A stretch of 64,000 nucleotides of DNA, from positions 1 to 64,000 of the forward strand of contig JAUCBJ010006078.1 of assembly GCA_032718475.1 (NCBI GenBank), given 5' to 3'. The DNA comes from Nemertoderma westbladi (taxonomy: Eukaryota; Animalia; Xenacoelomorpha). The notes under the pieces are model-generated. The model was not told the DNA's origin, made no database searches, and saw only the letters and a list, made by a program, of their open reading frames with translations. The translations under genes were made by a program, and so were the position numbers. This document shows positions 22,559 to 56,446 of this stretch, piece after piece (position 1 is the first letter of the stretch; every line of letters starts with the position of its first letter).

Positions 22559-24354
22559 GTGTATATTGTTATTATCCATTAATCCGTCAAGGATAGACAT
22601 TAATTCGATGGATCGAATAATTAATGTATGTTTAGGGGTAAATAAGAGCGTTGTGAAAAGGGGCTGGGCTGTGATGTCGGATGGGGTGGTGTAGAGTGAA
22701 GATTCATCTAATATAATGTAATCAATGCTATTCTAACAACTATCTTTCTTGACTTACAGTAGAATGATAATTACCTCCCATGCAAATGTGCATATTGCAA
22801 TAAAATATGAATATAATCATAAAAATAGCAATGATACTCTCCGCCTGATTTAAAATTCTTCACTATTTTAGTTATATCATCCATCAACAGCCTTATTAGT
22901 TATTTGTTATAAATAAACATAATATTTCACTCCTTCTTCATAGGCCTCTACTGCTGTGTTTCAAATTCAGCCACTGCACTGGTATGGCTGCGCGCGTTTA
23001 ATGTTATATAATTAAAGTATCCTCGTTTATTCTTGATCGTTAATATACAAGGGGCCTTCTGTAATTTAATTTAATACGATGTATAGGGCCTCGTATTTGC
23101 TGCGTATATTTGTGTATATGGGGAGGGGGCGAGGGCGGGGGGAGGGGGCTTTCACTGTGCTTTAACATTATATCTTATTTTTTTTACAACTAGTATACAA
23201 ACAATACCTGCGTTACAATATCAGCTCACAAGCAGGGCTGCTTTATCGCCTAGGCTCAAAATGCCTCATCCTTGGGGCCATGGCTTAAAAGAGGACACTA
23301 AATGTTAAAATAACCGATGAGTGGATGAGAAATTCAAAAGGCCCCACCCGGCACCTACCTTTCGTCTTAATTCCAAAAAGTTTAAATTTTCGCTCGCTTT
23401 GCTCGCGTTTGCTTCTGGCCAAACCTATTTTATAATACCATTATGGTGAAAATTATAACCAAAGCCTAAAAAAAAGCAATAGTTAATCACGAAGAAAGTT
23501 AGCAAATTTCGTCAATTTGTTTTATTTAGTTAAGCGGCTCTCTAGTTACATAACAAACATTCGAGAACACTAAATTATGTAACATTGAGTAAGGCAGTAT
23601 CAGGAGTTGAAATGTACAAAAATTGCAATCGCAGTAACCATGGAAGCAATAATATAGTAAAATACTACAATTCTATTTATTTTGAGCAACACTTATAAAT
23701 AAAATTACCGCATTACATGGGAAAAAAACTTAAACATTTTTTCTTCAGTATTCTCTGGACCCAACAACCTCGCTGACACTCGCTAAATAAAATGCCTCGA
23801 GAATATTGTAAAAAAGTTCTACATTTTTTCCCCATGTAATAAATAATTATTTTTCAACAATTCTCTATCGTTTTCTAACATTATTATTTTAAAATAAAAA
23901 ATTTAAAATAAAAAAATAAGAGCCATTTTTCACTCAACTTACAACACAAGCTTGTTATGTTATACCATAATAATAACTCTATATACAGTAGGCCTACGTC
24001 ATTGTTCATAAAAGAGCACTATATAGCTTTACGGCACGATTGATTTTGTCAAATAACAAAACGAGGGCCGTAATGGCTTTAAATTGCTAATTATGAACAA
24101 TGGATAATTTTATTTATTTGTGGGGATTTATTTGTAGTTATGCACTTAATCTTTCTAGATCAACCTAATAATGACGTGATGAAATTCTTAAATACATAAT
24201 AAATGTATGGCGTGGGGACATAGGCCTACTGAGAAATAATGTCGCACAACGGTATAAAGTTGGAAACTACAGTATGTCGCACTGGCGATTTGGTAGTGTG
24301 ACTTTTATTCCATACAAATAAATAAAAATATGATATCATATTTATGTTTTTCAG

Positions 24355-25109
24355 TTATATGGCAAACTTTGACTGGATCATTTAAGTGGGTGAGTGCTGG
24401 AAAAGCTGGTGTTTGGAGTATCGGCACTAATGATGCAATTTTCTACCGAGAAGGGACATACGGATCATGCAGTATTGGTACGAGATGGATAACTATCCCT
24501 GGGTCGCTCATCAATATTGCTGTTGGAAATGATATTGTTTGGGGAGTAAATGTAAACAATTACATTTACTGGCGACATGTCAGTCAGCAAAATCCAAGTG
24601 GCAGTGCCTGGGAAGAGATGGACCATGTTCATCACCTTTCATGGATAACCGTTGACTCAACCAGCAACGGAGTCTGGGGTATCAATCGTGATAAGCTTGT
24701 GTTGAAAAGATTAGGTATATCGGCCTCAAATCCTGTTGGAACATCATGGTATCCTATTACTGGTGCTAGCATGGCAGACATCAGCTTCGGACCAGCAGGG
24801 CTTTGGGGGATCAACTTAGGATACGCTCCATACTACATGCAAGGCACCTTTGGTTCCAATAATAATGTTGGAAGCTTTACAGGATGGGCAGCTGCAAACT
24901 GGCTAACGATTAGTTCAGGAGCAGATGGTACTTTATGGGCTACAAAGACAAACCATGAAATATACACAGCCACAGTGGAAGAAGGGAATATAAATCCAGT
25001 TTGGGAACGTGTAGGGAGTGGACTGAGGCATGTGAGCGCCAGTGATTGGAATGATGGGGTTTGGGGGGTGGATAATTCCGACTCGATAAAGTTTAAACAA
25101 TGTTCTTAA
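24355..25109 (+). CDS. Host gene last coding exon: tectonin / tachylectin-1 / fish-egg-lectin-like beta-propeller
   Basis: tttcag| phase-1 acceptor; ~250 aa with about six repeats of W..(I/L).G.L..(I/V)S.G...VWG(V/I)N....I(Y/F); TAA stop ends at 25109. Confidence 0.9.
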
Positions 25110-28594: not shown

Positions 28595-31488
28595 TTAAGC
28601 CCCACTGTGTACCCCCATTCACCCTATAGTTTCATTTTTTAACCCTACTTTTGGCACTTTTTTGAGACGTTTTTTGAAAATTACATTTCATAAATTACAA
28701 TTTGCAAAATAAATATTTTTGAGTTACACCTGTTTTTTGATGTTCGCAATTAGATGGAATTCAAATAAAATAAGTTAGAAATTTCAAACTTGTTTTTTCG
28801 GCAAGTGCAAAATTTTGGTAGCAGCACCAAATTTGAAAATACGTCGATTTTGTAAATAGGTTGTTTGAACCTTTTTTTTTGCGCAATATGGTTTTTTTGG
28901 GATTCTCTTTTCGATTGAATGTTTACGAGTTGCACCATATATATCAATATTGTATTTTTCGATGCTATGTGCAAAATTTGAAGCAAGCACGAAATTTTAA
29001 AATCTATTCAATAGTTAATTTGATTATGACAACTTATCTCTTGCATTTTAGAGGATTATGGGGGTTCTGAATTCAATGGAATAAATAATTATATAACTAG
29101 ACATCTCAAACTTACAAATGTACAAAATGTGGTCATAGCGCAATATTTTGAAACCTATCAAATATATAAATTTATCGTGTCACCTTGTTACTTGCGTTAT
29201 ACAGTACGGGTTTGTGATGTTTCTGAATTCAATTGATTAAGTAAAAATTAAGTTTTCTACACGAAATTTTCAAATTGTATTTTTCGGCGGCTTAAAATCA
29301 GGCGGCAAATCGGCGACAAATCAATAGATACAGTAGTATCATCTTGTTTCTTGAAAAAAAATGTTTTATTTTTCTACTCCATCCCCATTAGGTATTCAAA
29401 ACCTCCAAAATTCTAGCTACTGTTGATAGAGAGGGAAATTCTGTATATAAGGGGTTAAATTTCTATGACAATTGGATTTATAGATTTGGAGAAACGTGTA
29501 CCCAAGTAAGTACACTACGAGTCGCGATATCTCGAATGGTGTAAATGAGGACCCAATTTCACAACCGCATTAGCTTATATATATAATACAACCTTTAGTA
29601 TAGGTTTTGATCGACTGCTCTTTTCTGTTCTGCTGTAGAAAATTCTGAAATTCCTGGATGAGACGGGATCGTAGATCCCGACCGGGTTAGATTAAGTATG
29701 GGTCACCGTTCTGCTGGGGCTGTTGAGCTACTGGTCGTTTTGGCCCAAGGCCGTCGGGGAAAATAACAGAGTTTAGTGTTTCTCAATATTAATGTTCCGA
29801 ATGATAATAGCCAGAATCAGTATGGAATGAATATCCTGATACAGAATGACAGCAGAAAATACACAGATATTAATTGGTGATGTTGGTGGCGGTGATGGTC
29901 ATAAACTATGACCGGTCTGCAACTCTGTGATTAATGAACTGACCGGTAAATCAGTAATACAGAATAGTCATAGAATAGAATAGTTATTGGTTTCACCTCT
30001 TACTCTACTTGGCCTTCTGTACCCAGTGAATGCTTTCCTATCCCTGTTCACGTGCTTCCCTCCCTGCTATTGCCTAATATAATAATTGTCACTTTGGCAC
30101 CTCCAAGGTGGTTTGACCTCTCATCTCTCTCTGTGGCTTTAGGGCTTGTGTCGCCCCCCCCCCCCCCAAAGTTGGTTATGAGACGAGATTACTATTGGTA
30201 ATCTCGTATCCCCAACTATATTAGTAAAATGCCACTGGTCCCATTTTCGGGTGGATAATGTAATGGAATTGAATCCGCTTACACTCCCACCCATGCTATC
30301 TTCCCGGTGAGAAGATAGCATCAACCTTAAGTGCGCTTCAATTCCGCTGGAACCCAATCTAATATCGGGTGTGGGGTGGAGTTCTTTTCTCGGGGTCGGC
30401 TTTCCAGACCGCCTCCCTGGATGTGTTATTACTACCCATCCTTGGTGCAATCGCGAGCTAAGTTGCACCAAGGCATCTGATGTCTCTGTATTGGACAATT
30501 GTGCTCTCTCCTCACACAATTTTCTACAACCTCACTCTAATTTTCCTCACGTACCTCGTTGTCCCTTACTCTCACTCTCATCTTCCTTACGGACCTCGCT
30601 GTCCCTTAGTCTCACGTCGATCCCTTGGGACTCTTCCCCTCTCACTGCTCGCTCCCCACACTTGAATTGCACTCCTTTCACTCACTCACGTGTCAACACC
30701 TCCTCTCCATACTTCCCCCGATTCTCCATTTTCGTTTTCATTCTCCATACACTTATTGGGTCCCATGCATGTGCGCATCATGTTAGTGGGATCCGTCTAA
30801 GTCTTGTCCTACATATCGTACATATCATATGAGTTGTATATAATAATTAATTATTATATTATGTATTATATGTATTATATTATATGCCCGTCTATACGAC
30901 GCATCTTAACCCCCCCCCCCCTTTCAGAGGTGATATGACCCGTCACTCCCGGTCCCGTCCGTTCATGCTCTCTCCGCCTTTCACTTCCTTACTAACCTTT
31001 CCACCATCACGAACTTTTCCTGCGCTCACCCAATTGGTGGGGCCTTACAAAGGCTCAATTTAAGTGAGTGCCGTTAAACAAGATGTTACAATATACCATA
31101 CTCTACTTTCTTACTATGTGGCGCTCTCAGTGCCCACAACTTATAACTCTTATGGTACTATGTACCCTACTACTTCTATGGTATACCTACATACCATACT
31201 CTCTACTCTCTTACTTCTAACTCTTATGGTACTATGTACCCTGCTACTCTCATGGTATGTCTATATACCACACTCCCTATTCTCTAACTTCTAACTCTTA
31301 CATTACTATGTACCCTGCTACTACTCTCATGGTATGTCTATATACCACACTCCCTATTCTCTAACTACTTCAATGGTATGCCTATATACCATACTCTCTA
31401 CTACTACTATTTCTATGGTATGCCTATATATCATAGTCTCTCTACTACTTTGTGCTACGTACTATCTACTACTAATACTTTCTACTAT

Positions 31489-33288
31489 TGTAAGGGTCCA
31501 GTAGTATACCGCTTACCAGATCCTAGTAACGATGTATCTTACTATGAGACTCTAGTAATGTATACGGGCTTGTACAGTATCTGACAACAAATCCCAGTCC
31601 AGGATATCTAAACAAACAGATACAATACACAAACGACTACTGGCGAGGAACAGAGCCTAGTATCTATTCTATGTACGTGAGCGGGTTTAATGCCTACGTA
31701 CTAGACAAAAGGATACCTGTCCTCTAACCGGTGAGGCAGATGTACAGTTACAGTAACAGACCAAACTCACGGGAAAACAATCCCCGCGCAGCGAATCCTA
31801 ACTATCACTGACAGTCCTAAATACAGTAACTTGCCGCGGTGTGATTTATATGGTTTATATACGAGCTAGGTGGTTAACAGACCTAGTGTAACAATGCTGA
31901 TTACCCCTGTCTAAATCAGCCTAAAAGGTCGTGCCTAAATGTAAGGATAACTGATCCCCCTGTACGAAATCAGTCTAAAGGGTCAGGCCTAAATGTAACA
32001 ATACTGCTGGACAGAAATCAACAGTTTAATAACGAAAATGAAATACTCTATCTTGCCGCAACTAAATCAGATCCTAATTTTACAAATACAGATAATTTCT
32101 ACCCAAAATAATGTACAGTGCGCTATAGCTAGTAGAACTTTAAAGGGCAATATGTTTTAGGGCGTGTGTGTGTGGGTGTGTTACAAATAAAACAATTTCG
32201 TGTAATTCCTTTACTAGGTTTTAGTGATTTTCTGACTAAATGATACCGTGCGCTAGCTACTAAAATAAACTAGTCGCGTTTGTAGAACTTTATACTCACA
32301 AATGACGTCAAAGCTCTCTCCTTCCTATCCACAACCCAATGGGCAACCACAGTGTTAGTAACTACACCCGTGATCGGCACTAATACCAGATTCTGGTTGT
32401 AAGATAAGGAATAGGGGTTAATTGCTACCGTACGTTAGCTGATCTGGTATACTAATTTAATTCTAGAACTTTGTTGCTGCGGTAGTTAGCAGCAATACCT
32501 ATCAGTACGTGGCAAGGCGCGGTAGGATATTAATAAACCTCCATAGGCCAAGCAGTGTGCCGGTAGCAGAAATACTCCTTGCCTGATCAAATAGCTAACT
32601 CCAGACAGGGGGGGGGGGGGGGGTACTAATGTACGTTCTACAAAGCGAACCGGTACCAAACAGTCAGTGCTACGAATCACTAAATTATGGAACATATGCT
32701 GTCCGTACCTAATATGTACTCGCGTACTGACGAATGGCAATAGTTCGCACCTGTAGGAAGTACAGGTTAACCCAGGGGTTCGTAGGACTGACAAAGGGGG
32801 GGGGGTGTTTCTGTCTGAATATAATTATTTGATCCTAAATTTGCGGCGTCCAGTACGGCGTCACGCTTACCCTGATCTATAAGTCTTACCTTCTCACAAA
32901 GCGGGCGCTGCATAGCAAGTGGAGTATTTCGAAGGGCAAAGGGGGTGCGCGGTCAATCCAAATGTGGGCGCTAGTGTGTTGTGGACATCTCTTCCCTGCG
33001 TTGCTTACCGCCTAACGGTCTAGGCTGCCATCTCCCTGATGTTTGGCTGTCCCAAAGTTGGACCAAAAGAAAACATGTTCAGGAATTTGCAGTATATTTA
33101 CAGTTTTTACAAAGGATTTATCAAAATAAAGTTTCAACAAGAAACCGAAATAACTAATAACAATTTAGAATAACGTTATAAGGAGAATTTTACAAAGTGG
33201 TAAGAAGTCGTAGAAGGTGATAACCGAAGGCAAACCGGCCTTTTATACTAAATATCGCACATGGAAACTAAACAGACCCATGAACACA
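31489..33288 (-). repeat. 3' LTR of the family 1 element
   Basis: Matches 46749-48563 apart from ~3 substitutions and a few indels; PPT-like GGAGCGGTGAG|TGT on the minus strand at 33299-33289. Confidence 0.85.
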
Positions 33289-33943
33289 CTCACCGCTCCA
33301 TGAAAACAGTAAGTAAGACTGTTTTCACCAATCGAAACATAAAATATTTACAAACTACTTCTAAATCTACTAGTAGGGCCTAAAATATAAAATATAATCA
33401 CTATCTAATTATTGCATACTTAATATTGCAGATACGGCGTAAATACAATCGATCGTACATACAAATACAAATTTACGAATTAACTTTAGTGCCTAAAATA
33501 CAAAAAAAAGGCTTTCGGTTATCAAGGTAAGCAAATTAAACAAATCAGAACAAACAAATCGAACAAATAAATCAAAACAAATCAAACAAATAATTCAAAC
33601 TCTTTCGATAAATCTTTATATATTGTAAATATACCTAATAAACCTTCACCAAATTAAATCGGTCCAAATATAATATAAACATAATGCGCTAATAACTTTC
33701 AATAATGTCCTCCTGACGATCTAATAGTTCGTCCTGCTGGTCTGGATATCTTCTCCTGAGCACCAATTGCTAACGGTAGGCTCGCAAGCCTTCCTTTCCA
33801 TATCTCGCTCCTCCAAACCCAACATTCAAACATAACGTCCAATATAAATATCCAAATATAATATCCAAATATGATATCCAAATAAAATATCCAAATAAAT
33901 ATCCAAAATCGGTAGGCTCGCAAGCCTTCCTTCCACTCGCTTC

Positions 33944-34735
33944 CTATTCCTTCGCTGAGCGGGCTCGTCCACGTCCTCTAGTGCGATTGGGGGGTGGTCG
34001 AGGTCGAACTGGGCTCGGACTTCGGCGTCGAGTCGTCGGTGGTTCCAAAACGCTAGGAAAGGGGACGACGGGAGTTTCGCACATCCGTCGTGCGCTTAAT
34101 CCTCTAAATCCTCGTCCGATTCCAACTGTCGGCTTAACATCGGATCGAGTTTCTACAACGCTAGGAGGAAGTCGAAAGGGTAGGACCGTTCCGTCCGTTG
34201 ACACCTCGCTCTCTGACATCGTTTGAATCCTAATGGGTTCAGTCAAAGCGTATCCTGTCCCTCCGCGTGGTTCTCTAGCAAGGGAAACCGTGCCCCGAGT
34301 CATCCGGATTTGTGACTTCGACGTCGTCCTCTCGGCGACATTTACTATCTTCTTAATCTCTTGTCTGGCCTTCTGGGCTTTGAGTATACGAAATTGCTGA
34401 TCATCCTGTGGGTGACGCGTCTTCTCTGCTAACGGCGTGGCCTTGAAGCCAGTCTCACGCAAAACGTCGGTCTCGTCCAGAATGCACGAGGTTACGCGTT
34501 TGTGATAAAATGCGCTCCGGTATGCCCAAGCTATCGAATGCCAGGCTCCTCGATTCCGCTGTTCAACTCGCAGTTTATCGAATTCTCCGGCGGTAATCTT
34601 GTTCACCACAGTTTGAAAGTTCCAAGTATTCTTGTTGTCGGGTTGCACTTGTAAGAAATAGTCCCGCACAACTTTGAATCCACTGTCCAACGGCAATATA
34701 TCCAATACCTCCAACAATTCATCGTACTGAGGCAT
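33944..34735 (-). CDS. Accessory ORF4 of the BEL element, 263 aa, unknown function, Arg/Pro/Ser-rich basic tail
   Basis: Intact ATG-stop ORF between integrase and 3' LTR; tail RRRSPSPVRPRPPPNRTRGRGRAR; no signal peptide or TM segment seen. Confidence 0.7.
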   Translation of the reverse strand: MPQYDELLEVLDILPLDSGFKVVRDYFLQVQPDNKNTWNFQTVVNKITAGEFDKLRVEQRNRGAWHSIAWAYRSAFYHKRVTSCILDETDVLRETGFKATPLAEKTRHPQDDQQFRILKAQKARQEIKKIVNVAERTTSKSQIRMTRGTVSLAREPRGGTGYALTEPIRIQTMSESEVSTDGTVLPFRLPPSVVETRSDVKPTVGIGRGFRGLSARRMCETPVVPFPSVLEPPTTRRRSPSPVRPRPPPNRTRGRGRARSAKE

Positions 34736-34760
34736 AGCCGATACATATCCTTACATATCC

Positions 34761-36065
34761 TTATATCATAGGTTTACCAGTCCAATTGGTCGCGATATCG
34801 GTGTCGGTCTCAAACGTCCCAACTCCGATCCATAATCGAATCATTTTCGTCAGATATCCTCGCAAGATACAAGGTGCGATATCCGTCCCCGCGCGATCCA
34901 CTTCCTTAAAGTCCGTGATATGTGGAGGCACGTTGCGTACGATTTTTTGAACTATTACTTTACGCAACTCGGTTGATTCTAACACATCACAGAAGGTGAC
35001 CGATGGGAGGAAATCCAGGTTCGAGATGATCTCCGGGTGTTCAACTATAGGGATCTCGTAAGTTGTCTCCTTCCGGGTCGGTATACTAATAGGAAAACTA
35101 GTTGGTCTCGCAACCGGTACTATCGCTCCAGTAGAATGGGGCTGAGGTTCTCGCGTCATCTCGACATGAGGTATCTGTAGTCTCTGCGACAAACGCTGAG
35201 CAAAGGTAATACTATCGAAGAGCTCGGGTGTCATCTCCTTGGGTTCGGTTTGATCGTGGGATATCCAATAGAATGGTAGGCTCGCGAGCCTTCCGCCGAA
35301 CTCCTCGATCTCGCCTTTCTCGTACGCCTTGTACGCCCTGTAGAGGCTCAAAGCTTCCCGTTTCTCTTGTGTCGACTTATTAGACTCGTCCACTACCATG
35401 CTGTAGACGTCTGGTTCGACTAATTTAGGTTCGTAAATAACGATCTCACCCGCGTTCAGTCCACTCATTTTAAATGAATGATACGGATTTGTCAAAGGGT
35501 ATCCGCCTTCTTGGTAACGTAGACTTTGGTGGTATGAACATCGCGCTAATATCGGCTCGGGGTTCTCCGAGTTCAACCGCATAGGAATCGCGTTGTCTTG
35601 CACGCGCATACACGCTCCACATTTATAAAACAGTTTGTATACGGAAAACGCGTCCTTGGTCTCTGGATCCGCTCCTCGAGCGCGTCTATAAAGATGCATT
35701 CCTTCAAATTCGTCTCTAGCTGCAGGTAAGGGTTCGTTTACCGTCAAATATTGCAGCGTATGATACAATCGGCGTATTTCGGTGTCTGGATCCTCGCAAA
35801 TGTCGCTAGCGTCGCATAACGCATCGTAGGGATATAACGCATTGTATTCCGCGCGTAATTCCTCCGTTCTTTTGTTGTATGCGTCCAACCGCTGTCGCGT
35901 AACATTTGGGTCCGCCTTGGATTTAGCGAGCTTGGCCGTACTCCTAGCCATACTCTCCACTCCAAACACACTAAAGTTTTTAGCTCCATAACGATTGAAT
36001 GGCGCCTGGTGCTCTTGTTCTTGCGTAAACCCTTGACGTAACTCTTTATACATCTTCTCTGCCAT
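34761..36065 (-). CDS. Accessory ORF3 of the BEL element, 434 aa, unknown function
   Basis: Intact ORF in the env position, same strand as pol; CGAC...CSYH possible zinc site; no hydrophobic TM segment. Confidence 0.75.
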   Translation of the reverse strand: MAEKMYKELRQGFTQEQEHQAPFNRYGAKNFSVFGVESMARSTAKLAKSKADPNVTRQRLDAYNKRTEELRAEYNALYPYDALCDASDICEDPDTEIRRLYHTLQYLTVNEPLPAARDEFEGMHLYRRARGADPETKDAFSVYKLFYKCGACMRVQDNAIPMRLNSENPEPILARCSYHQSLRYQEGGYPLTNPYHSFKMSGLNAGEIVIYEPKLVEPDVYSMVVDESNKSTQEKREALSLYRAYKAYEKGEIEEFGGRLASLPFYWISHDQTEPKEMTPELFDSITFAQRLSQRLQIPHVEMTREPQPHSTGAIVPVARPTSFPISIPTRKETTYEIPIVEHPEIISNLDFLPSVTFCDVLESTELRKVIVQKIVRNVPPHITDFKEVDRAGTDIAPCILRGYLTKMIRLWIGVGTFETDTDIATNWTGKPMI

Positions 36066-36798
36066 TGTATACGAATATATGCGGTTACATATCGTTACAT
36101 TTCTACTAGATGAAGCACAAAATAGAGGTTAGATGTGAGGTGACTTAGAGTTTGTCGGCCTTTGGCTCAACTCTGCTCTAAACCCCAACCCATTTTGCCT
36201 AATGATTTCGGGTTCGCGTGATTTCGCACTGGCTCCTAATCCAAAATTGTGCCGATAAAAAACGAATTCCGGGTAAACTAGCCGCGAGTCTAAAATACTC
36301 ACCTTTTAATTTCCCAAACTACGTTTCCCAAGAAAAATAGTGCAGTCGAGAATTAATTGGTCTAAATAATAGTAGACACGACTACGTAGAACAAGGCCGA
36401 TTTTCTTTTTTCCAAAAAAAATTTATCGGTAGGCTTGCAAGCCTTCCATCCGCTCTTGTCCTCCCCAATTTTAATTTTATCTAGCTGTATTCTAGAATTT
36501 GCTTTCACTGGAGAATCGTTTTTCTTAAATTTAAATCCAAATAAATGGATTTGTCTAATAATTTTGAAAAATTGTCTCACTTGTGGGTTCCAAGTGGAAT
36601 TCCATTCCTACTGTACACACAATCCCGCTCCTATGTGATACATAAGGGTACTACCCTCCATGTTCACGTATAAAGACAATGGAATTCCACCGCTGTCTCT
36701 ATCTACAGTGAAGAGGATTACAAATGCACGTACAGTAATACAAATGCAAATAACTAAAATACAGTAGGTCTATGTGGCGGCCAACAAAGGTCCCACAT

Positions 36799-37908
36799 CT
36801 ATTTACTAATATTGGGTGGAGATTTGTAGTCTCCTGTCTCGTTTCTAGTCTCCTCAAGGAGTACGAGACGTTGTACAGGCCTATCTACGGTACGTCCGTC
36901 GATAGTCCTTACAGTAACTGTCCTCACTACACCAGATGTAGGGTGCATGGTCAAAATGACTCCAGTCAGCCAAAACCGTCTTTTCAGATTAGCTTCAGCC
37001 AATAAAACATGGTCACCACTTCTTAAACATCGGGTATTTAGATACCAAGAAGTTCTGGTCGAAATAGAGGGCAAATAATATTTCTGCCATATTTCCCAGA
37101 ATTTATTTGCAAGCAATTGAGTGATTTTCCAAGCCTTGTTGCCGTATCCGTCACTATCAACGGGTACCGAAATGGGCAACAATGTCGTCGGCGCGTGCAT
37201 AAGCAGGTGCGCTGGTGTCAAGGCAAACTGTACGTCGTTATTGTCTGGGATCAAAGCGATCGGTCTAGTATTTAAGATTGCTTCGATTTCTATTAGTAAC
37301 GTCGTTAGTTGGTCGTCTGTCAAAATGTGTTGCGTCGGTACGACTTTAGCCATAGCTGTCTTTATTGAGCCAATCAGCCTTTCCCAAACGCCGCCTCTCC
37401 CCGGACTGTCTGGAGTATTGAAAAACCAAACAATACGGTGAGGACGTAGTTCCTCGGAAATCTGGTTTTGGTCCAATTTTCTCAAAGCTCTGGTTATTTC
37501 GTTCCGTGCACCCACAAAGTTTGTCCCTTGGTCGCAGTATATGGATTTGACCAATCCACGTCTAGCGATAAATCGCCGTAAGGCTAGGATAAAGGCATTG
37601 GTGGTCAAGTCTGTCACTCGCTCTATATGGACAGCTCTGCTGGCCATGCAAGTGAAGATCAATCCCCAACGTTTTACCTGTACCCTTCCGCGTTTCGCGA
37701 TCAGAACAAACCTCGAACGTAAGTGTGATAGACAGTGGTGTCTACCTACGTGTTTGAGTTGTACATGTGCGTCCAGTATCATGGCGCGCTGTAACTCATG
37801 GTGTTGCGGTATGATGATAGGATACCTAAAGTCAAGTGCAAAGTCGATGTTTTGGAGTCTGGACTTGTGACAAAGTAAGCCCTGGTAAATAATCGGACTC
37901 CAACTCAA
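36799..37908 (-). pseudogene. BEL integrase (DDE core plus C-terminal domain), internally deleted
   Basis: HVQLKH, WGLIFTC..RAVHIE, CDQGTNF, GGVWERLI, ILNTRPI; the CxxC and first catalytic Asp (GxDxxGP) region is missing; frameshifted from RT-RH. Confidence 0.85.
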
Positions 37909-40907
37909 AATCGGTGAAGACTTAATCTGTTTACCTTGTTTGATCGCTGTGAACTCTCGTGCGAATATCGCAATTGATAATGTCGAATGATATCAACTTC
38001 ACAGTGGCCAATTTCCTTTAAGGTAAGTCTTCTAGGAAAGTCGCGTTTGCCTCTGGCATATTGTCTCAATCGTTTGAGCCATGCTAACTTGCGGCACGCG
38101 TCAGTCCAGGATCTAGTTAGGTTCACTATCCTGTCAACGTAAGTGTTAGTGACGTCATCGGGTAAGGTGTAGTCGTAGTGTGGATACTTGTCTGGACTTG
38201 GTAGGCCCACGGGCCTTCCGGTAGGTTTGTCTGAGTCCCCAAGTACGTCAATCTCTACGGTCTTACCTTTACCGTCCGCACCTAATGTGTCGACTGGCAG
38301 TAACGGTTTCAACTCTACAGTGTCAGTGTGCTCCTGTGAGCCTGTAAGCTTCCTAACCTTAGTCACACGTTTACCTGTAGGTAAGTCAAGTACCTTCTTC
38401 GAGCGGAGTGTAATCCCTGTGGCCACACCTTTGTCGTCCAGAGAAGTCAAATTCGGTAAGTCTCTAAAGGTCCGCTCCAATGGGTCTTCTAATGGAGTGT
38501 CTAGTAGACAGTCCGGTGAAGCGTCTGGTGAACAGTCTGGCGAGACGTCTGGTGAGACATAGCGCGGAACATCCAGCGAAATGTCTTGTCGTTGGTCCCA
38601 AAGTCTGTCTAGCGTAACTTCCGTCAGAAAGTCTGGTTCAAAGTCTGGTCTAAAGTCTGGTGGACAGTCTGTCGAGATGTCTGGTGGAAAGTCTGGTGAG
38701 ACGTCCGGTAGACATTCTGTCGAGAGTTCTATCAAACAATCTGGCGAACAATCCGGAGAACAATCTGGTGTCGCTTCTGGTGAATAATCTGGCGAGTAAT
38801 CTGGTGAACAATCCGGCGAAACGTCTGGTGAAATCTCCCGCGGAACATCCGGCGAAGGATTCGTACAAGCGTCTGGTCGAGTGTCTGGCGAGACGTCTGG
38901 CGTAATGTCAGGTCTGGCGTCCAGGTCATCAGATTTCGTCCGTCCTTTTTTCCTCTTGACCTTGGCGTTGGCTTTCGCTTTAGACTTGACAACCTTGTCG
39001 AGTTTTATCTCGGCACCCTCTGGTATGGTGTTGGTCGTCGCGTCGAATAACGGTGGCCATTCGTCTGATGGTCGCTGTAGGAAATCGGGTCCTCTAAACC
39101 AAAAGGATTTATTGTCCGGTTTACAAAAGTCAAGTGGTTGCATCCCCCGTGACGCGATGTCACCTGGGTTCAGCTTCCCTGGACAGTGACGCCAATCTTG
39201 TTTGAGCGACCGGTCTAGTATTTCAGCCCGTCTGTTGGCTACGAAAGTCTTGAACTCAAATGCTTTGTTGTTTATGTACCAAAGTACCAACGTCGCATCC
39301 GTCCAATACGTGACCTTCAAGTTAGCCTCCAGCTCGCGTTGAACTAGACTGATAATATCGGTGGATATCGTCCCGGCTTGCAGCTCCCCGCGAGGTACAG
39401 TCATATACTTCAATGGCATTGTTCTAGCCCTTGAAGTAACGAGAGATACATCGTAGCTGTCCGATGTCACTTGTCGTCTAAGGTATAAAGTAACCCCCAA
39501 TCCATCCTTGCTAGCGTCACTAAAGCTGTGAAGCTCTAAATCGGCAGGAAAGGTGGTTTGCAAAGGAAAGTATACCCTTGGTATGGTATAGTCTTGTAGG
39601 AACGTCAGTTGGGCTTCCCAGTCCCTCCATCGCTCAGCTAACTTTGCTGGGATGGGATCGTCCCATTCCAGTCCGGCTTGCCAAATGCTGCGGAGTATGA
39701 TCCTAGCATGTAGGATCACTGGACTAATGAAACACAATGGGTCATACAATCGACTCATGGTCGATAAGCAAGTTCTCTTAGTGAGAGGTCTAGTCTGGTC
39801 GTTGGACCTTACACGTACCCTAAAATTGTCGGTGTTAGGGAGTATGATCCTAGCATGTAGGATCACTGGACTAATGAAACACAATGGGTCATACAATCGA
39901 CTCATGGTCGATAAGCAAGTTCTCTTAGTGAGAGGTCTAGTCTGGTCGTTGGACCTTACACGTACCCTAAAATTGTCGGTGTTAGGGTCCCAACTAAGTC
40001 CTAATACTTTGGTCGTCGGCAGAGGTTCTAGGTCTAAGTCCAAGTCACCTCCACTGCGATCCGTCGGGTCAAATGAGTTCACCAGTTCGGGTTCGTTGGA
40101 AGCGAACTTCGTCAGATGAAATCCGCCCTCAGCGAGACAATCCTGGAGTTGGTGTGCTACGGTAGTAGCGCGCTCCAAGGTGTCACAACTCTTGAGGCCG
40201 TCATCCACGTAGAAGTCTCGTTCCACGGTCCGAACTACTTCTGGGTCAAATTGGTCTCGTCTGTCCAATGCTGTCTGCTTCAATGCGTACATGGTGCAGT
40301 TGGGGCTGTCCCTGGCTCCAAATACTCTTACCTGCATTTGGTAAGTTTCTGGCGGAAGTTGTAAGTTTCCGTCCGGATACCAAAGAAACCTCAAACTGTC
40401 CCTGTCCCGCTCCAAAGCCTTAACCTGGTGAAACATGGCCTCTACGTCACAGGTGAAAGCCACTTTGCGTTGTCTAAAACGCATTAGGACTCCCATGAGG
40501 TAATTATTCATATTCGGCCCGTCCATCAGTTCGCTGTTCATAGACATCCCTTGGTAAAGCGCAGCGCAGTCGTTGACTACACGCACCTTGCCAGGTTTGT
40601 CCGGGTGTCGAACAAAATGATGTGGCAGGTAATATGTCTGGTCTGTGGTTACCTCGGGATTTAACATCCTAATGGCGTATCCCTTTTGGAGATACGTCTG
40701 AAGTTGTGCATTGTATTGCATATGGGCCGTCTCGTCTCGCAACAATCGCTGCCTTATTGATTTGAGTCGCCTCAAAGCAAGCGGGTAATTGTTAACGAGT
40801 TTAGGTTGTCCATCGCGCCACAACATACCAACCTCATAGTAGCCATTCGCGGTCTGGCGAATGGTATCTCTCATAATATTTAATGACCGTTTTTCCTGTT
40901 CTGACAT
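37905..40907 (-). pseudogene. BEL pol: reverse transcriptase and RNase H
   Basis: YYLPHH, DVEAMFHQV, FYVDDGLKS, LHSFSDAS, NPGDIASRG; 147-bp in-frame tandem duplication (39692-39988) and an SPDx repeat tract. Confidence 0.9.
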
Positions 40908-43900
40908 AGCGGTCTCGTAACTACCAGGTTCTGCTGAGTCCTGTTCCGTTCAGTCAGCAGTCGGTCAAGCGCTGCTTGCACTGCGCCATGGTCCTCGTCC
41001 ACGTCTTCGTCCGCTGCGGTGGCTAGTGTCAATGTGTCTGGTAGGCTCGCAAGCCTTCCGGTGTCACTAGTCGGCGTCGAATCGTCGTGCGGCGGTTTGA
41101 CAACCTTTTGATCTGTCGGTAGGCTCGCAAGCCTTCCAAGATCAACGACCGGTGTCGAAGCCTGGTGGGTGGGGTCAATGACCTTCGGATTTTTCGGTAG
41201 GCTCGCAAGCCTTCCAAAATCCTCGTTCATCGAGTCATCCATGGCAACAACCCTTAGGTCTTCAGTAGTCAATACAACCTGGTCTACTGCAAGTAGTTGT
41301 AAGTCAGAGGTCCGTATGGTCGTGTCCAGATCGGTTACGTCAGTATCGGTGGCGTCTGCATTAGCGACGCAGGTCTGTCGTAGTGCCGTCCGTACAATTG
41401 GACCACAGGAGTGTGAAGGAGAATTATCTATCGTGTTAGTCAATAAACTACACGTACTCAAAACGTCGTCCTCCTGGTCACTTACCTCTAGTGAACGTAT
41501 TGGTGCTCTAGTATACCAACCTATGGGAGTTCTACATGCGTAGGGGTTGCCCGCTGTAATAACAGATGGGCGTGTCTCCCATACCTGATGTAAGTTAAAC
41601 TGGTCTGTCCCAATTAACATCGCAATAGAACGATAATTGACAGGACATTCCGGTATTCCAAGGTGTCGGAAATACTTACGATCTTCCGGTGATTGCTCTG
41701 GCACAGGGCCGAGCAAGTTACTAAAGTCCTTCGTAGCTGCAAAGGTCAAATTTCTTACTGGAAGTAATGAGCGCTCCACCTTGCTGTGTTCTGCTTTGGA
41801 AAGAAGAGTGTCTAAAGTTAATTTTACTCTCGTCACAGGAATCGCTCTCTTACCATGCATGCTGCTTACAGTATACTGAGCAGTCTTACCTTGACTCATG
41901 TCCGTAACTACGTCGGCTACTTGTTCGTCGACATAGCTATGCGATGACGCAGAGTCTAAGATGGCGTATATACGCTTGCTCCCTCGGGTTCCGGTAATCT
42001 TTATAGGAATCACGCTAAACCCTTTCAATTGGTTCTGTGTGAGGAGCGTTATCGAAGGCTGTTCCTCACCTGCATGCACGTAAAAAGTGTCGTCTTCCTC
42101 CTCGTCCTCGTCCGATGATCCTGACTGATCCATACAGTCGGTATAAAAGGTACGGATCTCGCGCGGCGCACGCTCCTTATAAAGCGCGTCGCATCTAGCC
42201 GCTTTATCTGGATGCTCTCGTCGAAAGCGTCTGGTCGGAGTATGACTAGTTGTGTGAAGCAACGCGTCATGGTTACGTCCACACAGAGAACATGTATCGT
42301 CGCTCGGGCAATCCTTCCGGACGTGTCCTGGCTTCATACATCTCCAACAGGAATCTAGAGATCGGATTTGGAGTCTCCTCTCCTCGATCCCTAACTCTTT
42401 AAAAGCGCGACATCCACGTAGTTTATGTCCGCTATGGTTTCTGCCGTTCCGCTCGCAGTATGAGCATCCCACAAAGTCCGCCGGCAACTGTTGTCGTGGC
42501 TGCGTGGTGCCGATAGGCGTCAGAACTTTAGAAGTCTCAGTAGGGGTGGCGTAAGTAACGGCTTTCGCGTTCGTCGGAAATGGTTTTGTCCGAGTCGGCG
42601 CAGAAACAGCTATCCCTTCCGCCGCGATATGGTGATCGGTATAGTTCGATAGAGTCTCGATCACGGCCTCCCGTGAAATAAGTTGATAGACATCGGTGAG
42701 TTTTAATAACCCTCCGGCCTCTTCACGCTGGTACTCGATGCGTCGCCATTCTCGTCGTAGTCGATGGTGAAGTCGACCGATTATTCGAATGAGAACCGTC
42801 GGTGCGTTAGCGTACTCGAGTTGTCCAATGGACCGTAAAGTCCCTATAGCGTTCTTTATTTCGTCCGCGAGTCGTAAAAGGTCGATCGGTCTCGAAATGT
42901 TGCCTCCTCTGCAGAGGTCTTCAATGATGGATTTAGCCATGGCGACGTTACCGCCGTAAATCGAATACAAACGGTCGTACGCCAATTCAAAGGCATCGGG
43001 AACTCCAATGAATGTTTCTGCTAATCGTTTCAGCTCACCAGACAGAACTTGGAGCAAGTAATTAAACTTCTCCGTCGAGGTGAAAGCACACTTAGCGATC
43101 TAGGACTCTACGTAGTCTACCAGTGTGCGCCAGTGTTTCGCGTTGCCAGAGAACTTCGGCGGTTGCTGTGCCGGTAATCCGTGTCTAGCCGCGAATTTCG
43201 CAATCTCGCTAACCAAATCCAACTGTCCGCGTCCTTGTTCGGTGGCGTCGTCCAGTCGCTCCCTTCCGTGCGTTGTTCGTCGGTAGGAATTATTAACGGG
43301 ATCTTCTTCTCGATGTGTCGGAGTCCGTCTAGTCTCCTGTTCTCTCCTCGGTGGTCGATGTTGTCTAGGTTGTTCCAACTCCACGCTGGTTCGTGATCGA
43401 TCCGACGGTTGCGCTTCGAGTCGCTCTTCTATCTGAGCTAGTCGGTCCGCTACAGGTCGCATTATTTCGGCGAGTCTGTTGGTGCTGATCGCTTCCGCTG
43501 GTTGCAACGTGGGTTTCTGTTGGGGTGTTTCTCGAGGTGGATTGTCGATGTAGGGATTCGTCGACCTCTCCTCTCGTTTGTAATCTTCCGCCGCTCCAGT
43601 ACGGAATATTTCCCGTTCCGTCGACTCCGAGTCGCTAGATGAGTCGCTGTCGTCCGGATAAGGTGGCTGGCGGGTTCGTGTCCGGCGTATTATTCTAGAT
43701 TTCGTCCGTTGCGGTCCGGAATCTACGGCTCTCCGTTGTTCGGTAGGCTCGCAAGCCTTCCACGAAGTCGTAGGTCTCGCTATACGTTGTCCGATCCCGT
43801 GGGTACTACCCACATCCATCCTCCTCCGTAATTCGGTAGGCTCGCAAGCCTTCCACGAAGTCGTAGGTTGCGTCGAACATTGTGTCAACGGTCGAGTGAA

Positions 43901-45688
43901 ATAGTCGGGTTTCGTAGTCGGTCTATAAATAACTGGATTTGCACAGCACGTCACAGGTTTAACTTGTAATGGTTTACTCACCTGTTTAATGGTCATAAAC
44001 GCAGGTTCCTCTCTTCCTACAAGTAGACTACGACTTACTGTAGGTGGACTAGTTACGTTACCTGCTAAAATCGGCGATGAAGTCGCCCTAGGTTACGGTA
44101 TTTCTGTCACAACAAACCTGTTGCCTTGCGTCGGATGCACAGGCGTTATTCCCTTAGGTTTCGTAACGAAGACCGGTTTTATCGGATTCGTGGGTTTGAG
44201 CATAGGAATAACTTGGGGAAAACGTTTACAGTAATCCTCGACGAACTCCTCTCCTCGATCTATCGCTCCCACACTTCCTTCCTCGATCCGCTTCTGTATG
44301 CCGCGATATCGAGCTTCCATACGATCCAGGGCAGACAAGTCGTGTCCAGTCCGCGATCTTATAGATCTATCTCTCGCGTCGAGTTCGAGGTCCGCTTGCG
44401 CGTTCGCTGTCTCGCGCGATCTACGATTCAATTCGAACTGTAGTTGCATCTCCCTTTCGCGTCGATTCGCTACTTGTTGTTGTGCCGCTAACTCCGCTTC
44501 CTGTATAGCTAAGCGTGCGTTTATTTGTCGTGCCTCCAACTTAGCGCGAGCATCGGACGCTGCCTTCTTCCGTGCTAACTCAGCTGCGTTTACCGCCGCA
44601 ACTCGTACTAGCTCGTCGGCTGCCGTCTGTCGTGCTAACTCGTCCGCTGCTGCTGCCGCGGCCGCTTCTTGCGCCAAGTTTTCCTCCAATCTGCGCATTT
44701 CCGAAGCTTCGAATTCGGCTTGCGCCTTGAGTTGCGCAATTCTTGCTTCGTCCTCTCTATGTTGTTTCTCTCCTTCGATGGCGATCTGTGCCATCTGGTG
44801 TTGCGCTTCTTCCTCGGCGACTTGTTGTCGGCGTGCAACCTCCTGTTGTTGTCGAGTAATTCCAGACGCTGTTCTACTAACGTCGCCAACGTCGCCAACG
44901 TCGCTCCGTACGCTAACGAACGATCTATCCAGTGGTGGATGTTGGTAGGCTCGCGAGCCTTCCGTAGTGAGAACTTCCGTCGTCCCTCGCGGTTCGACTT
45001 CCGGTTCGTCGATCGGTACGCCGCATCTACGAAGAAAATTGGTCAGCGTTTCCAACCTTCCGTCCAGGCAGTAGAGTTCTTCTTCCTCTTCGGGTTGTAA
45101 CAACGCGTCCGAAACTGACTCACCTAGCAGTTGGTCAAACTGCTCCTGTTGAGCCAATCTTATTACTGACTTAAACTGGATAATGCTTTCTCTCGCACTT
45201 ACTAATTTATCTACTATCTTTACCTGAGTAAAGTTGTCGCCACGCAACTCCGCAAGTTCGTGTAAACCTTTAAGTTTATCTACGGAGGCATGTACCCTAC
45301 TTTCTATCCTTACCTGTAAGGTGTAGAACTCGTATCTCAACATCGGGGCAGTTAACTCGCGTAAAACGCGAAAACCTTCTCCGAGGTTCCGAGTAATCTG
45401 GGCCATGGGTCCTCCTATACTTCTAATAACGTTCTCCTGGCTTCCAGTCGAACTTACCATGTCCGGTTCCCGTGATCTAGTCTGCGGGACGGTAAGGAAA
45501 TCTTCGATTCTGCCGTCGCCACGCGTTGCGGCTTCCGGTATTTCCGTTCGGGGTACCGGCGACGCAAGCGGTGTGACATCGATGGAATCTCGGGTTCTCC
45601 TTCTCGGTTCGTCTACTGTCGATCTGTCCGGGTCGAACGAGTCATAGTCGGTAGGTGGGTATCTCGTTGAACGGGGTGTGTCACTCAT
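40880..45688 (-). pseudogene. BEL gag-protease in a single frame with two in-frame stops
   Basis: ORFs 44093-45688, 43100-43996 and 40880-43057 share a frame, separated only by TAA (44093) and TAG (43100); PKFSG..W capsid-like region, three Zn knuckles, ILDSAS protease motif. Confidence 0.88.
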
Positions 45689-46748
45689 GTCTTATTATAT
45701 ACGTCAAGTACGGGTAATAAAATGTCAAAGTGTCTGAATGTTGAAGTGTCAAACTTACCTTGGTATATATAGTATATATATACCCTAACCGGTACAAATA
45801 AATCAACAAGTCAGAATGTCGAAATGTCAAAATGTCGAAATGTACAAATGTCAAACTTACCTTGTTATATATATATCATATATATACCCTAACCAGTACA
45901 AATAAACTAACAAGGTATATAATAAAATAAGTAGTAATCTAGCCTACCGGCTAAATTTGTACGAATAAATGAGATAACGATATACGTTAACAAAATATAG
46001 ATCAACAAGTACGAATAATAGGCTAAACAGCAACGTCTAACGGGAAAATAAGTACCAACAACACTACTAATAGACAGTGAAACCCACAAATTTTGAGTAC
46101 TACTGTGCTTTCTTAAGTTTGAACGACGCGAGTCATAAAACTTACGTTCCTTTGATCTTCCAGTCGTACAAATTCCCAAATACAAACCGGACGTGGGTCT
46201 TTCCATTTTTCGGCGGCGCGGACGAATTTATTGTCTCCCAAACTTTGCGAAAAGCGGTCTAATCCTCGAAGCGGTCCAGAAATGAGTCCTTGAGTCCTGA
46301 AAAGGTCGAAGGTGAGAGTTTTACTTCTACGCTTACGAAAAATCTTCCTAGGTACCGATACAAATTGGTCTTTAAACCCTATGTACCTTTTCAAGTACCG
46401 AAAAGTAACACCGCACACACACGGCGTAAAACAAAGTGCTACAAACTAACTGTTAGCTAGTCAAATATTAAATACGAAAGTACTAGCTACCCTAAAAGCC
46501 TACTGAAGCAGGGGACGTTCTAAATTACTAAATTTACTAACCTTAAATTTTAAATATCTCCTACTTTCAAATAGCTAGCAGATCTAAACAATACTATACA
46601 CTAATTTCAGAATTTGTATAATATACTTCCTACTGTTGTCAGATTGTAGTGCGCACGCACTACAAAGCGTACAGATCTAAACAATACTATACACTACGGT
46701 AGAAATACTATACACTAATTTCAGAATTTGTATAATAATACTTCCTAC

Positions 46749-48563
46749 TGTAAGGGTCCAGTAGTATACCGCTTACCAGATCCTAGTAACGATGTATCTT
46801 ACTATGAGACTCTAGTAATGTATACGGGCTTGTACAGTATCTGACAACAAATCCCAGTCCAGGATATCTAAACAAACAGATACAATACACAAACGACTAC
46901 TGGCGAGGAACAGAGCCTAGTATCTATTCTATGTACGTGAGCGGGTTTAATGCCTACGTACTAGACAAAAGGATACCTGTCCTCTAACCGGTGAGGCAGA
47001 TGTACAGTTACAGTAACAGACCAAACTCACGGGAAAACAATCCCCGCGCAGCGAATCCTAACTATCACTGACAGTCCTAAATACAGTAACTTGCCGCGGT
47101 GTGATTTATATGGTTTATATACGAGCTAGGTGGTTAACAGACCTAGTGTAACAATGCTGATTACCCCTGTCTAAATCAGCCTAAAAGGTCGTGCCTAAAT
47201 GTAACGATAACTGATCCCCCTGTACGAAATCAGTCTAAAGGGTCAGGCCTAAATGTAACAATACTGCTGGACAGAAATCAACAGTTTAATAACGAAAATG
47301 AAATACTCTATCTTGCCGCAACTAAATCAGATCCTAATTTTACAAATACAGATAATTTCTACCTAAAATAATGTACAGTGCGCTATAGCTAGTAGAACTT
47401 TAAAGGGCAATATGTTTTAGGGCGTGTGTGTGTGGGTGTGTTACAAATAAAACAATTTCGTGTAATTCCTTTACTAGGTTTTAGTGATTTTCTGACTAAA
47501 TGATACCGTGCGCTAGCTACTAAAATAAACTAGTCGCGTTTGTAGAACTTTATACTCACAAATGACGTCAAAGCTCTCTCCTTCCTATCCACAACCCAAT
47601 GGGCAACCACAGTGTTAGTAACTACACCCGTGATCGGCACTAATACCAGATTCTGGTTGTAAGATAAGGAATAGGGGTTAATTGCTACCGTACGTTAGCT
47701 GATCTGGTATACTAATTTAATTCTAGAACTTTGTTGCTGCGGTAGTTAGCAGCAATACCTATCAGTACGTGGCAAGGCGCGGTAGGATATTAATAAACCT
47801 CCCTAGGCCAAGCAGTGTGCCGGTAGCAGAAATACTCCTTGCCTGATCAAATAGCTAACTCCAGACAGGGGGGGGGGGGGGGGGGTACTAATGTACGTTC
47901 TACAAAGCGAACCGGTACCAAACAGTCAGTGCTACGAATCACTAAATTATGCTGTCCGTACCTAATATGTACTCGCGTACTGACGAATGGCAATAGTTCG
48001 CACCTGTAGGAAGTACAGGTTAACCCAGGGGTTCGTAGGACTGACAAAGGGGGGGGGGGGGGTGTTTCTGTCTGAATATAATTATTTGATCCTAAATTTG
48101 CGGCGTCCAGTACGGCGTCACGCTTACCCTGATCTATGGGTCTTACGGCGGGCAAGGGCGTCGAACAAAGTCTTACCTTCTCACAAAGCGGGCGCTGCAT
48201 AGCAAGTGGAGTATTTCGAAGGGCAAAGGGGGTGCGCGGTCAATCCAAATGTGGGCGCTAGTGTGTTGTGGACATCTCTTCCCTGCGTTGCTTACCGCCT
48301 AACGGTCTAGGCTGCCATCTCCCTGATGTTTGGCTGTCCCAAAGTTGGACCAAAAGAAAACATGTTCAGGAATTTGCAGTATATTTACAGTTTTTACAAA
48401 GGATTTATCAAAATAAAGTTTCAACAAGAAACCGAAATAACTAATAACAATTTAGAATAACGTTATAAGGAGAATTTTACAAAGTGGTAAGAAGTCGTAG
48501 AAGGTGATAACCGAAGGCAAACCGGCCTTTTATACTAAATATCGCACATGGAAACTAAACAGA
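46749..48563 (-). repeat. 5' LTR of the family 1 element (outer end anomalous)
   Basis: Direct repeat of 31489-33276. Confidence 0.85.
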
Positions 48564-48819
48564 ATTTTCCACAGCTTCACATTTGAGCAATAAAGTGCTT
48601 CGTGCCCTATGATTGGCCCAGCTCATCGTTCAACGCAGTCCGGCCCTTACACTAATCTGGGACATGGAATCCTAACAGAATTTTCCACTGCCTCACATTT
48701 GAGCAATAAGATAATTTATGCCCTATGATTGGCCTGGCTCATCATTCGCTACGTTGTACGCTTCTCATTGGCCTACCAATTAGCACCAAACGAAAATAAA
48801 TGGTCCCAAAATACAATTT

Positions 48820-48888
48820 TCCCGACCGGGATTCGAACTCGTAACCTATGTAATGTAACCAACGCCTTAACCATCTGACCACTACGCC
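48820..48888 (-). other. tRNA-derived (SINE-head-like) sequence
   Basis: A box TGGTCAGATGG and B box GTTCGAATCC at tRNA-like spacing; no intact acceptor stem. Confidence 0.65.
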
Positions 48889-49844
48889 ACGAGAGTACCT
48901 AAGGGTTTTATGTGTACAAATATGAATAGGCATATTACATTACTGTAACTCAATCAAAATACGTCGGATTTTCGAAAGTTTTTACGTTAAAGTTAAACTA
49001 CAAATGCTATCTTATAGTGAAATAATTCATCAACTATCTTACTTCTTATTTTATTATTTGCTTATTATATTTTATTATTATTTCTTATTACATTATATTA
49101 TATTCTTATTAGATTTGCCCTTATTTATTTTTTATATTTTTATGTGTGGGAAGGGCATCTCGCCCTCATTCCTACCCCACTTAGTCCAACATATTGGATG
49201 ACTAAACTCTAAGGTGACCCTTCCAATAGGCAACACTTTCCCACAGCCCTCCTGTAGGTCTTCCTATCTTTGGCCCTTATCTTCCCTCCTATCCAAGTCC
49301 GTCATGCTTCCGTCCGGGAAATACACGCATGGCATGCTGTACGTCCCCATCTCCTTTAGACTCCGCGTCCACTTGCTCCACTGTCAACTTATTTCTTCCG
49401 GGACTTCCGTATCCCACTCAACCTTTAACTTATATACTTTCTTTAGTATTTGCTTCCCCGTGACTAACAATGGGGATGCTAGGGCTAGGGGATCGTATAT
49501 CCTTGCTATGTACGATACATAGCCCCGCTTAGTGTGGATCTCTGCACCCTCTTGGCTCAGTTGATACTCCAACTCGTCCATCTCCCAGTTCCACACGATC
49601 CCTAGTGCCTTTTGCTGCGACTCCACTCTCTTGTTCTCCATAACCTGTCCCTTTCTTGTTGTGGGATTGTCCATGGTCGACTCTGGTCGTTTGTCTTCTA
49701 TGGCCTTCATAAATTCCTCAGAGCTGGACTGGAACTTAGTAAGGTTGAACCCGGATCCTTTTAGGATGTCACGAACCTCGCGTCCTATCTCCAGTATCTC
49801 TTCAACCGTGTTTCCAGATCCCATCCCATCATCTACCTCCGCTA

Positions 49845-56201: not shown

Positions 56202-56446
56202 CGCCGTACCGGTGGGCCATCCGTCACCCTCGGCCTGTGGTTGGCCGTCGATTTCGGAACTCCGACCGCTGTCATCGTCATGCGTCGACTCGTCCCTCTC
56301 TCGTGGTTGACGGCCGCCCTCCGCTTGGGTAGCCGGATCGTCCCTCGTTGGTGAATCCGGCGTCGCAGGCTGATACCGTCTCGTCGCGGCCTCTCAGATG
56401 GTTTGGTTGGTGTCATCCGGGGTCTGAGGTGGTGTTCTGGTAATCA

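Follow-up and report, generated by a model that had tools for sequence, protein, structure and literature searches.

What has kept eleven near-exact copies of a 20-nt sequence alike over one BEL/Pao retrotransposon, and whether they act as RNA or as DNA, are the questions raised by the window analysed here, a single stretch of DNA of 64 kb. The selection, export and packaging of their own RNA by LTR retrotransposons are poorly defined. In excerpts of a review on Ty1 and Ty3, packaging signals were described as not clearly defined, with scattered sites as possible contributors (PMC4974528), and a poor understanding of BEL/Pao replication has been noted as well (PMC8742986). With eleven near-exact copies of a 20-nt signal next to two orphan ORFs, the element offers a sharp handle on that question. 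Depending on the answer, the array could turn out to be an address on the RNA, an anti-silencing array on DNA (which, if true, would be the counterpart of VANC in an animal) or a code for dimerisation. All evidence on the motif comes from one defective copy of the element.

The element (Table 1) is bordered by a 5-bp target-site duplication, ATAGT (49033-49037 and 31484-31488), and the empty insertion site is visible near 62495, in a second copy of the older host BEL family. The parts common to both LTRs, direct repeats of 1.8 kb, are only 3 substitutions and 4 indels apart, which indicates a young insertion; a fourth substitution in the comparison falls outside the LTR. The copy is defective, as judged from two in-frame stops in the Gag-protease region (44093-44095 and 43100-43102), two frame changes and a perfect tandem duplication of 147 bp (39692-39987) in the RT-RNase H ORF, which also includes a long low-complexity linker. 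In a check for an 18-nt primer-binding site behind the 5' LTR and a polypurine tract ahead of the 3' LTR, no site starting with TGG was found next to the 5' LTR, and the 3' LTR is without its first part. The best 120 database matches of the RT-RNase H region were all BEL Pol proteins with 31-44% identity; thus, there is no close family member among them. The homolog search with the Gag-protease region returned no match. Likewise, homology searches, Pfam included, revealed no homolog of ORF3 or ORF4, and their predicted structures were unusable (pLDDT of 33 and 42, respectively), the single-sequence models being too poor for a fold search. The cysteine-histidine cluster of ORF3 is possibly a zinc site, and the ORF4 product is, by composition only, a candidate RNA binder. 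Extra ORFs are generally known in LTR elements, as stated in the accessible parts of two reports (PMC5408684, PMC13524379).

Table 1. The BEL/Pao element, its coding regions and the hairpin copies, in positions of the window.
Feature	Position	Strand	Description
Whole BEL/Pao element	31489..49032	-	17,544 bp; TG...CA ends; inserted in an older BEL family
5' LTR	46749..49032	-	part 46749-48563 common to the 3' LTR
3' LTR	31489..33276	-	without the first ~470 nt of the 5' LTR
Gag-protease region	40880..45688	-	DUF1759 and zinc knuckle, both Pfam matches slightly below the curated cut-off
RT-RNase H ORF	37905..40949	-	Peptidase_A17 Pfam match, E 3e-46
Integrase ORF	36799..37992	-	DUF5641; frame differs from RT-RNase H
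ORF3	34761..36065	-	434 aa, orphan, intact; CxxC-x23-CxxH cluster
ORF4	33944..34735	-	263 aa, orphan, intact; Arg/Ser/Pro-rich tail, 10 Arg in the last 35 aa
Hairpin 1	44944..44963	-	loop CGCG; Gag N-terminal region; frame offset 2
Hairpin 2	43835..43854	-	loop TGCG; in 93-bp duplication; frame offset 1
Hairpin 3	43742..43761	-	loop TGCG; in 93-bp duplication; frame offset 1
Hairpin 4	41196..41215	-	loop TGCG; PR-RT linker, 78-bp triplication; frame offset 0; predicted 7-bp lower stem
Hairpin 5	41118..41137	-	loop TGCG; frame offset 0; two double (compensatory) changes in the lower stem relative to hairpin 4
Hairpin 6	41040..41059	-	loop TGCG; unit three of 78-bp triplication; frame offset 0
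Hairpin 7	38200..38219	-	variant, C-G closing pair, loop CGTG; RH-IN linker; frame offset 0
Hairpin 8	36428..36447	-	loop TGCA; integrase/ORF3 interval; outside long ORFs
Hairpin 9	35275..35294	-	loop CGCG; within ORF3; frame offset 0
Hairpin 10	33911..33930	-	loop TGCG; 13 nt past the ORF4 stop; outside long ORFs
Hairpin 11	33775..33794	-	loop TGCG; 3' non-coding region; outside long ORFs

A search of the 64 kb with GGAAGGCTNNNNAGCCTACC recovered every site of the original prediction, ten of them exact and one, the 38200 variant, with two mismatches. In the shuffle control none of 100 shuffles came near the observed count (mean of 0.42 matches). All eleven copies are in sense orientation with respect to the element (minus strand), and they follow the 20-nt consensus GGAAGGC-N6-GCCTACC with 15 of 20 columns invariant. 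Four loop types were found: TGCG (seven copies), CGCG (two), TGCA and CGTG (one each). The A.A mismatch (GGA...ACC) is asymmetric, and it was neither corrected nor flipped in any copy. The bases at positions -1 and +1 are U.G in five copies, C.A in four and A.G in two, and never a Watson-Crick pair. These bases and those of the loop are linked and define two sub-types of the motif; isosteric covariation at -1/+1, which we considered, was given little weight, as the pattern follows the two sub-types. The 38200 copy is preceded by a duplicate of its own last six bases.

The claim that the motif is missing from the LTRs and from the rest of the window was upheld by two kinds of scan: no further site with up to 3 mismatches was found elsewhere in the 64 kb, and a search with a covariance model of the eleven copies detected no additional copy in the window at E<0.5. 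Consequently, neither the LTRs of the element nor the older second BEL family in the window carries the motif, and the count is zero in the approximately 46 kb outside the element. Rfam covariance models gave no match at E<=1 against positions 31000-49000. The number of independent sites, originally estimated at about eight, was refined to 7 clusters with 7-8 independent sites, because the 33911 and 33775 copies, which have some upstream flank in common, may represent a third local duplication.

Eight of the eleven copies are coding, five at frame offset 0, two at offset 1 and one at offset 2, and the open frames continue through all eight; the remaining three lie outside the long ORFs. The predicted frame independence of the motif was thus borne out, and a protein repeat was ruled out by the use of three coding frames together with the non-coding copies. 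An assembly or adapter artefact was rejected as well, given the four loop variants, the open frames in the eight coding copies and the confinement to one element, and so was a leader site of the TRS type, since the copies are not positioned ahead of ORF starts. None of the best 120 BEL relatives aligns over any coding copy, and the motif-encoded peptides are missing from all 120. The PR-RT linker has 335 aa in this element in comparison to a median of 168 in relatives (n=50); for the RH-IN linker the values are about 433 and 170 (n=20), so that the two linkers are about 2 and 2.5 times as long as the median of the relatives. The motif has thus settled in lineage-specific expansions, and the array provides an example of a cis signal that has come to occupy coding linkers in each of the three frames. 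No copy is present in the 5' leader, the first one being located about 750 nt into gag. The 7 clusters lie at more regular intervals than expected by chance (P about 0.02), a value confounded by the way in which conserved domains and linkers alternate.

An indication of constraint comes from the old duplications. Between the units of the 78-bp triplication, 28, 40 and 34 of 58 flank positions are different (48-69%), in contrast to 0 of 20 motif positions. Even the nearest flank of the triplication differs at 9 of 24 positions, and at that rate the calculated chance of an unchanged motif is about 8e-5. The identity ends sharply at the motif edges, while the flanks of the same duplications diverge by about half, and apart from the local duplications the sites have only a base or two of flank in common. 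An origin of all copies in recent local duplications with common flanks, which had been considered beforehand, does not fit these observations. Protein constraint cannot account for the invariance, since copies are found in every frame; to judge from the contrast between the unchanged motif and its diverged flanks, the nucleotides themselves are very likely kept by selection.

To provide a baseline, eight other BEL loci (2.1-14.6 kb, some of them partial) were taken from genome bins, found via the alignment of 25 of the 120 relatives; a weak viral match from the protein-led search (L010) was left out. None of the eight loci, nor the gag-pol of the neighbouring family, contains a hairpin recurring in at least 3 separate clusters, in comparison to 7 clusters here. 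A search of viral contigs with the element's own RT yielded no locus. The motif pattern was matched at 4 loci in IMG/VR, representing one phage site seen four times, and at 5 loci in metagenomes; we judged these matches to be due to chance, as they were single, located in GC-rich prokaryote-like DNA and without similarity to the element proteins. In the literature that was covered, mostly abstracts and with subscription journals largely outside, we found no report of such a hairpin array in BEL/Pao or other LTR elements. A text search found the motif string in no paper, and it was absent from 9 supplement files of PMC3118150 (2.0 million characters), a set that perhaps does not cover the full element FASTA. 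The feature is real, strongly constrained and, as far as tested, element-specific. Frame independence, invariance against diverged flanks and absence from other BEL loci all support the original prediction of a distributed, element-specific cis signal kept at the nucleotide level.

Whether the motif acts as RNA or as DNA was approached by folding and covariation. The first and last loop bases are able to pair in all eleven copies, and with 40 nt of context the predicted fold gives the inner stem a pairing probability of 0.53-0.96 in each of them. With 100-200 nt of context, 6 of the 11 sense copies lose the predicted hairpin, all of them from close pairs or triplets, and this loss probably reflects pairing with a neighbouring copy in the modelled fold. 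The compensatory change proposed at 38200 held up in part: the replacement of T-A by C-G is real, but it is a single event, and covariation over the whole structure, as seen in eleven copies, was not above shuffles (210 of 500 reached the observed value), so that the change has little statistical weight. In hairpins 4 and 5 the 7-bp lower stem is kept despite two non-synonymous double changes; the simulated P was about 0.003 by pair count, with the register picked post hoc, and 0.11-0.13 by energy. Flank-extension energies were not enriched overall (mean z of -0.42 for the sense and -0.60 for the antisense strand), and therefore, together with the energy-based P, they single out neither strand. 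The evidence thus favours RNA without deciding the matter. Among the points for RNA are the fixed mismatch and orientation, the closing pair at 38200, the kept lower stem, the pairable loop ends and a homoduplex centre that is fully paired in all four variants of the sense strand but in two of four of the antisense strand; among the points against it are covariation at the level of shuffles, unenriched flank stems, a loop series equal to the CpG decay of CGCG, invariant arms with a variable centre and the missing copy in the 5' leader. For a site that acts as duplex DNA, there would be no need to keep the lower stem in hairpins 4 and 5.

Arms that are invariant, with variation only in the central 6 bp, could also be expected of a pseudo-palindromic operator array in double-stranded DNA (GGWAGGC-N6-GCCTWCC), bound by a protein of the element, e.g. 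ORF3 with its CxxC...CxxH cluster, which would counteract silencing of the integrated copy or activate it in a VANC-like manner. In VANC-type arrays a protein encoded by the element binds the duplex and takes methylation away. We regard this alternative as unlikely, though it has several observations on its side. Covariation is not significant, and the element is rich in CpG (observed/expected of 1.23; the left flank reaches 0.70 and the older BEL family 0.75); this richness, however, may reflect youth, and 1 of the 8 other BEL loci also exceeds 1.0. According to the part of the Arabidopsis VANC/VANDAL study that was available (PMC5735166), VANC motifs are family-specific, occur in one orientation, are multiplied by tandem duplication and accompany accessory ORFs, as in our element, for which specificity is derived from the window and eight distant loci. 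Uniform orientation is therefore compatible with DNA. On the other hand, in the same partial account the VANC motifs have 8-9 bp, are mainly non-coding and belong to a plant DNA transposon, unlike the 20-bp pseudo-palindrome described here with 8 of 11 sites coding. A DNA operator also offers no reason for the central 6 bp being self-complementary in all four variants, it leaves unexplained the coupled change at 38200 and the compensation in the lower stem shared by hairpins 4 and 5, and the LTR promoter is without sites.

The self-complementary copies could instead pair with each other, within or between genomes, and thereby dimerise or compact the long RNA, a reading we consider improbable. 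On the sense strand all four variants are predicted to give a homoduplex whose 14-bp centre is paired throughout and which is 13-20 kcal/mol more stable than two hairpins, while on the antisense strand two of the four lose this pairing (about 8 kcal/mol), and the need to pair with other copies would account for the invariance. Nevertheless, such duplexes are possible for any palindrome, and the strand signal amounts to about two independent transitions, the loop variants matching the CpG-decay series of CGCG, though the element is not CpG-depleted. The A.A mismatch weakens the duplexes, yet it is always retained, and the 38200 variant is a poor partner for the other variants (-4 to -10 kcal/mol). 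Palindromes were proposed to mediate Ty1 dimers in the excerpted review (PMC4974528), and the array resembles the retroviral DIS and Ty1 PAL in having a self-complementary word on sense RNA with an intermolecular duplex possible in silico. In the same excerpts, the cis signals of Ty1 and Ty3 map to the RNA ends and internal sequence is mostly dispensable; the present element differs from these systems, as far as they are described there, in having eleven copies and none in the leader or 5' packaging region. A spread without function, in which template switching carried an RT-pausing hairpin into tolerant linkers and repeated copying kept it uniform, seems to us quite improbable. It would agree with the location of all coding copies in dispensable-looking expansions, with descent by copying as suggested by the two sub-types with their linked bases, and with the six-base repeat preceding the 38200 copy, which fits microhomology or a decayed tandem copy. 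It does not agree with the identity ending at the motif edges where the duplication flanks have diverged, nor with the other hairpins of the element not being multiplied and the array being absent from all eight other BEL loci. Moreover, direct repeats promote deletion during reverse transcription in retroviruses, so that repeats would be costly to keep. Mobile palindromes of the REP or RPE type are also found away from an element, in either orientation. The tiny mobile palindrome of the original prediction is the least likely option, as 11 of 11 copies have the same orientation, no copy was found outside the element in about 46 kb and there is no consistent target duplication.

Rev is an arginine-rich RNA-binding protein, and its response element, RRE, one large element with a purine-purine mismatch in the stem, is confined to unspliced RNA. 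The similarity to our element lies in an LTR element with an accessory ORF possibly serving export of unspliced RNA, as also described for the Cer1 LTR element and its accessory export protein CERV in the accessible part of that report (PMC10309623). The A.A mismatch is likewise a purine-purine mismatch in a stem, and the candidate protein would be the arginine-rich ORF4 product. In contrast to RRE, the sites here are dispersed, with 3 of 11 in or after ORF3 and ORF4, and we found no sequence or fold link between the element and CERV or Rev. The dispersed packaging signals of ssRNA viruses (MS2, STNV and the HBV pregenome), outlined in the consulted portion of another review (PMC6281560), are many short stem-loops, also in coding regions, and the array is like them in having multiple stem-loops along the genomic RNA, here as predicted folds only. 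The MS2 signal, as summarised in that portion, is a sparse loop and bulge motif, whereas in our case a near-exact 20-nt word has an invariant stem and a variable loop. Dispersed packaging signals have in common that capsid or Gag recognises them, which promotes assembly. With Belpaoviridae the element has in common the TG...CA LTRs, the target-site duplication, the Gag zinc knuckle, the PR-RT-RH-IN order and the BEL-type Pol. No primer-binding site was recognised. The element differs from them in its two orphan 3' ORFs, its long PR-RT and RH-IN linkers and its hairpin array, and in its size of 17.5 kb with LTRs of 1.8-2.3 kb, in comparison to the typical 4.2-10 kb and 0.2-1.2 kb (ICTV profile, PMC8742986), a difference that is descriptive and not phylogenetic. 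Since the array lacks, or gives no clear sign of, a defining feature of each of the dispersed packaging signals, the CERV- or Rev-type export systems and the VANC arrays, we filed it under none of these.

The reading that we tentatively prefer, although we put it slightly short of an even chance, is that the eleven motifs are protein-bound RNA hairpins by which the long genomic RNA is marked, to be exported or packaged. On the genomic RNA of the element, the motif likely folds, according to the models, as a short hairpin with an A.A mismatch. A protein would dock at many of these hairpins; our best guess is the arginine-rich ORF4 product, otherwise Gag, and the partner is a guess because ORF3 and ORF4 have neither homologs nor usable models. 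The bound protein would then mark the unusually long RNA for export or packaging. The motif itself may have spread by local duplication and by template switching of the reverse transcriptase, after which the flanks would erode and the motif be retained. A bolder version of these protein-bound hairpins, which we find somewhat unlikely, would be an RNA address system of a giant BEL/Pao lineage, in which an orphan accessory protein and a 20-nt hairpin placed in every tolerant linker would allow the full-length RNA to be recognised by counting of sites rather than by a terminal element.

The older BEL family in which the main 17.5-kb element is nested, which is without an integrase and contains tandem arrays, carries two hairpins of its own. 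Both lie in these arrays on the minus strand, with 19 and 13 matches, and the first of the two hairpins shows an outer A-T/G-C swap. Their tandem arrangement differs from the dispersed one of the main element's hairpin motif, with which they share no sequence kinship except GG...TACC.

Within the main element, the 20-mer immediately upstream of the variant hairpin (the copy with a C-G closing pair) ends in the same six bases as that hairpin and departs from the hairpin pattern by 5 mismatches; it is possibly a decayed head-to-tail copy. A purine run, ~330 nt past the integrase stop and ~15 nt ahead of hairpin 8 (located between integrase and ORF3), resembles a polypurine tract; its position is distant from the 3' LTR.

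The reverse transcriptase contains a perfect, in-frame 147-bp tandem duplication, which is either a very recent event or an assembly artefact, and a repeat with a 12-bp period codes for a linker, rich in (C/V)SPD, that connects RNase H to integrase. The portion of the 5' LTR that is missing from the 3' LTR includes a tandem unit of 118 bp, in which CCAAT boxes occur, and, as read from the sequence, a tRNA-like SINE fragment; a search with ARAGORN gave no tRNA.

Positions of the features in the window
Feature	Position
G-run/C-run palindromes, 5-nt AT centre	16806, 18286, 28395, 28525
Tectonin/Hyd_WA beta-propeller frame	24297-25109
Older BEL family, tandem arrays	31118-31434, 60457-62289
Purine run	36462-36470
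20-mer beside variant hairpin	38220-38239
12-bp period repeat	38488-38900
Reverse transcriptase duplication	39692-39987
5'-LTR-only portion	48564-49032
tRNA-like SINE fragment	~48820-48900
RVT_1 reverse transcriptase frame, separate	56428-57960

The G-run/C-run palindromes come in pairs, within a repeat family of inverted orientation that is probably a MITE or DNA transposon. The eight contigs with BEL/Pao retrotransposons used as the baseline for dispersed hairpins (L011-L018) were found within prokaryotic genome bins, and they probably represent host-animal contamination.
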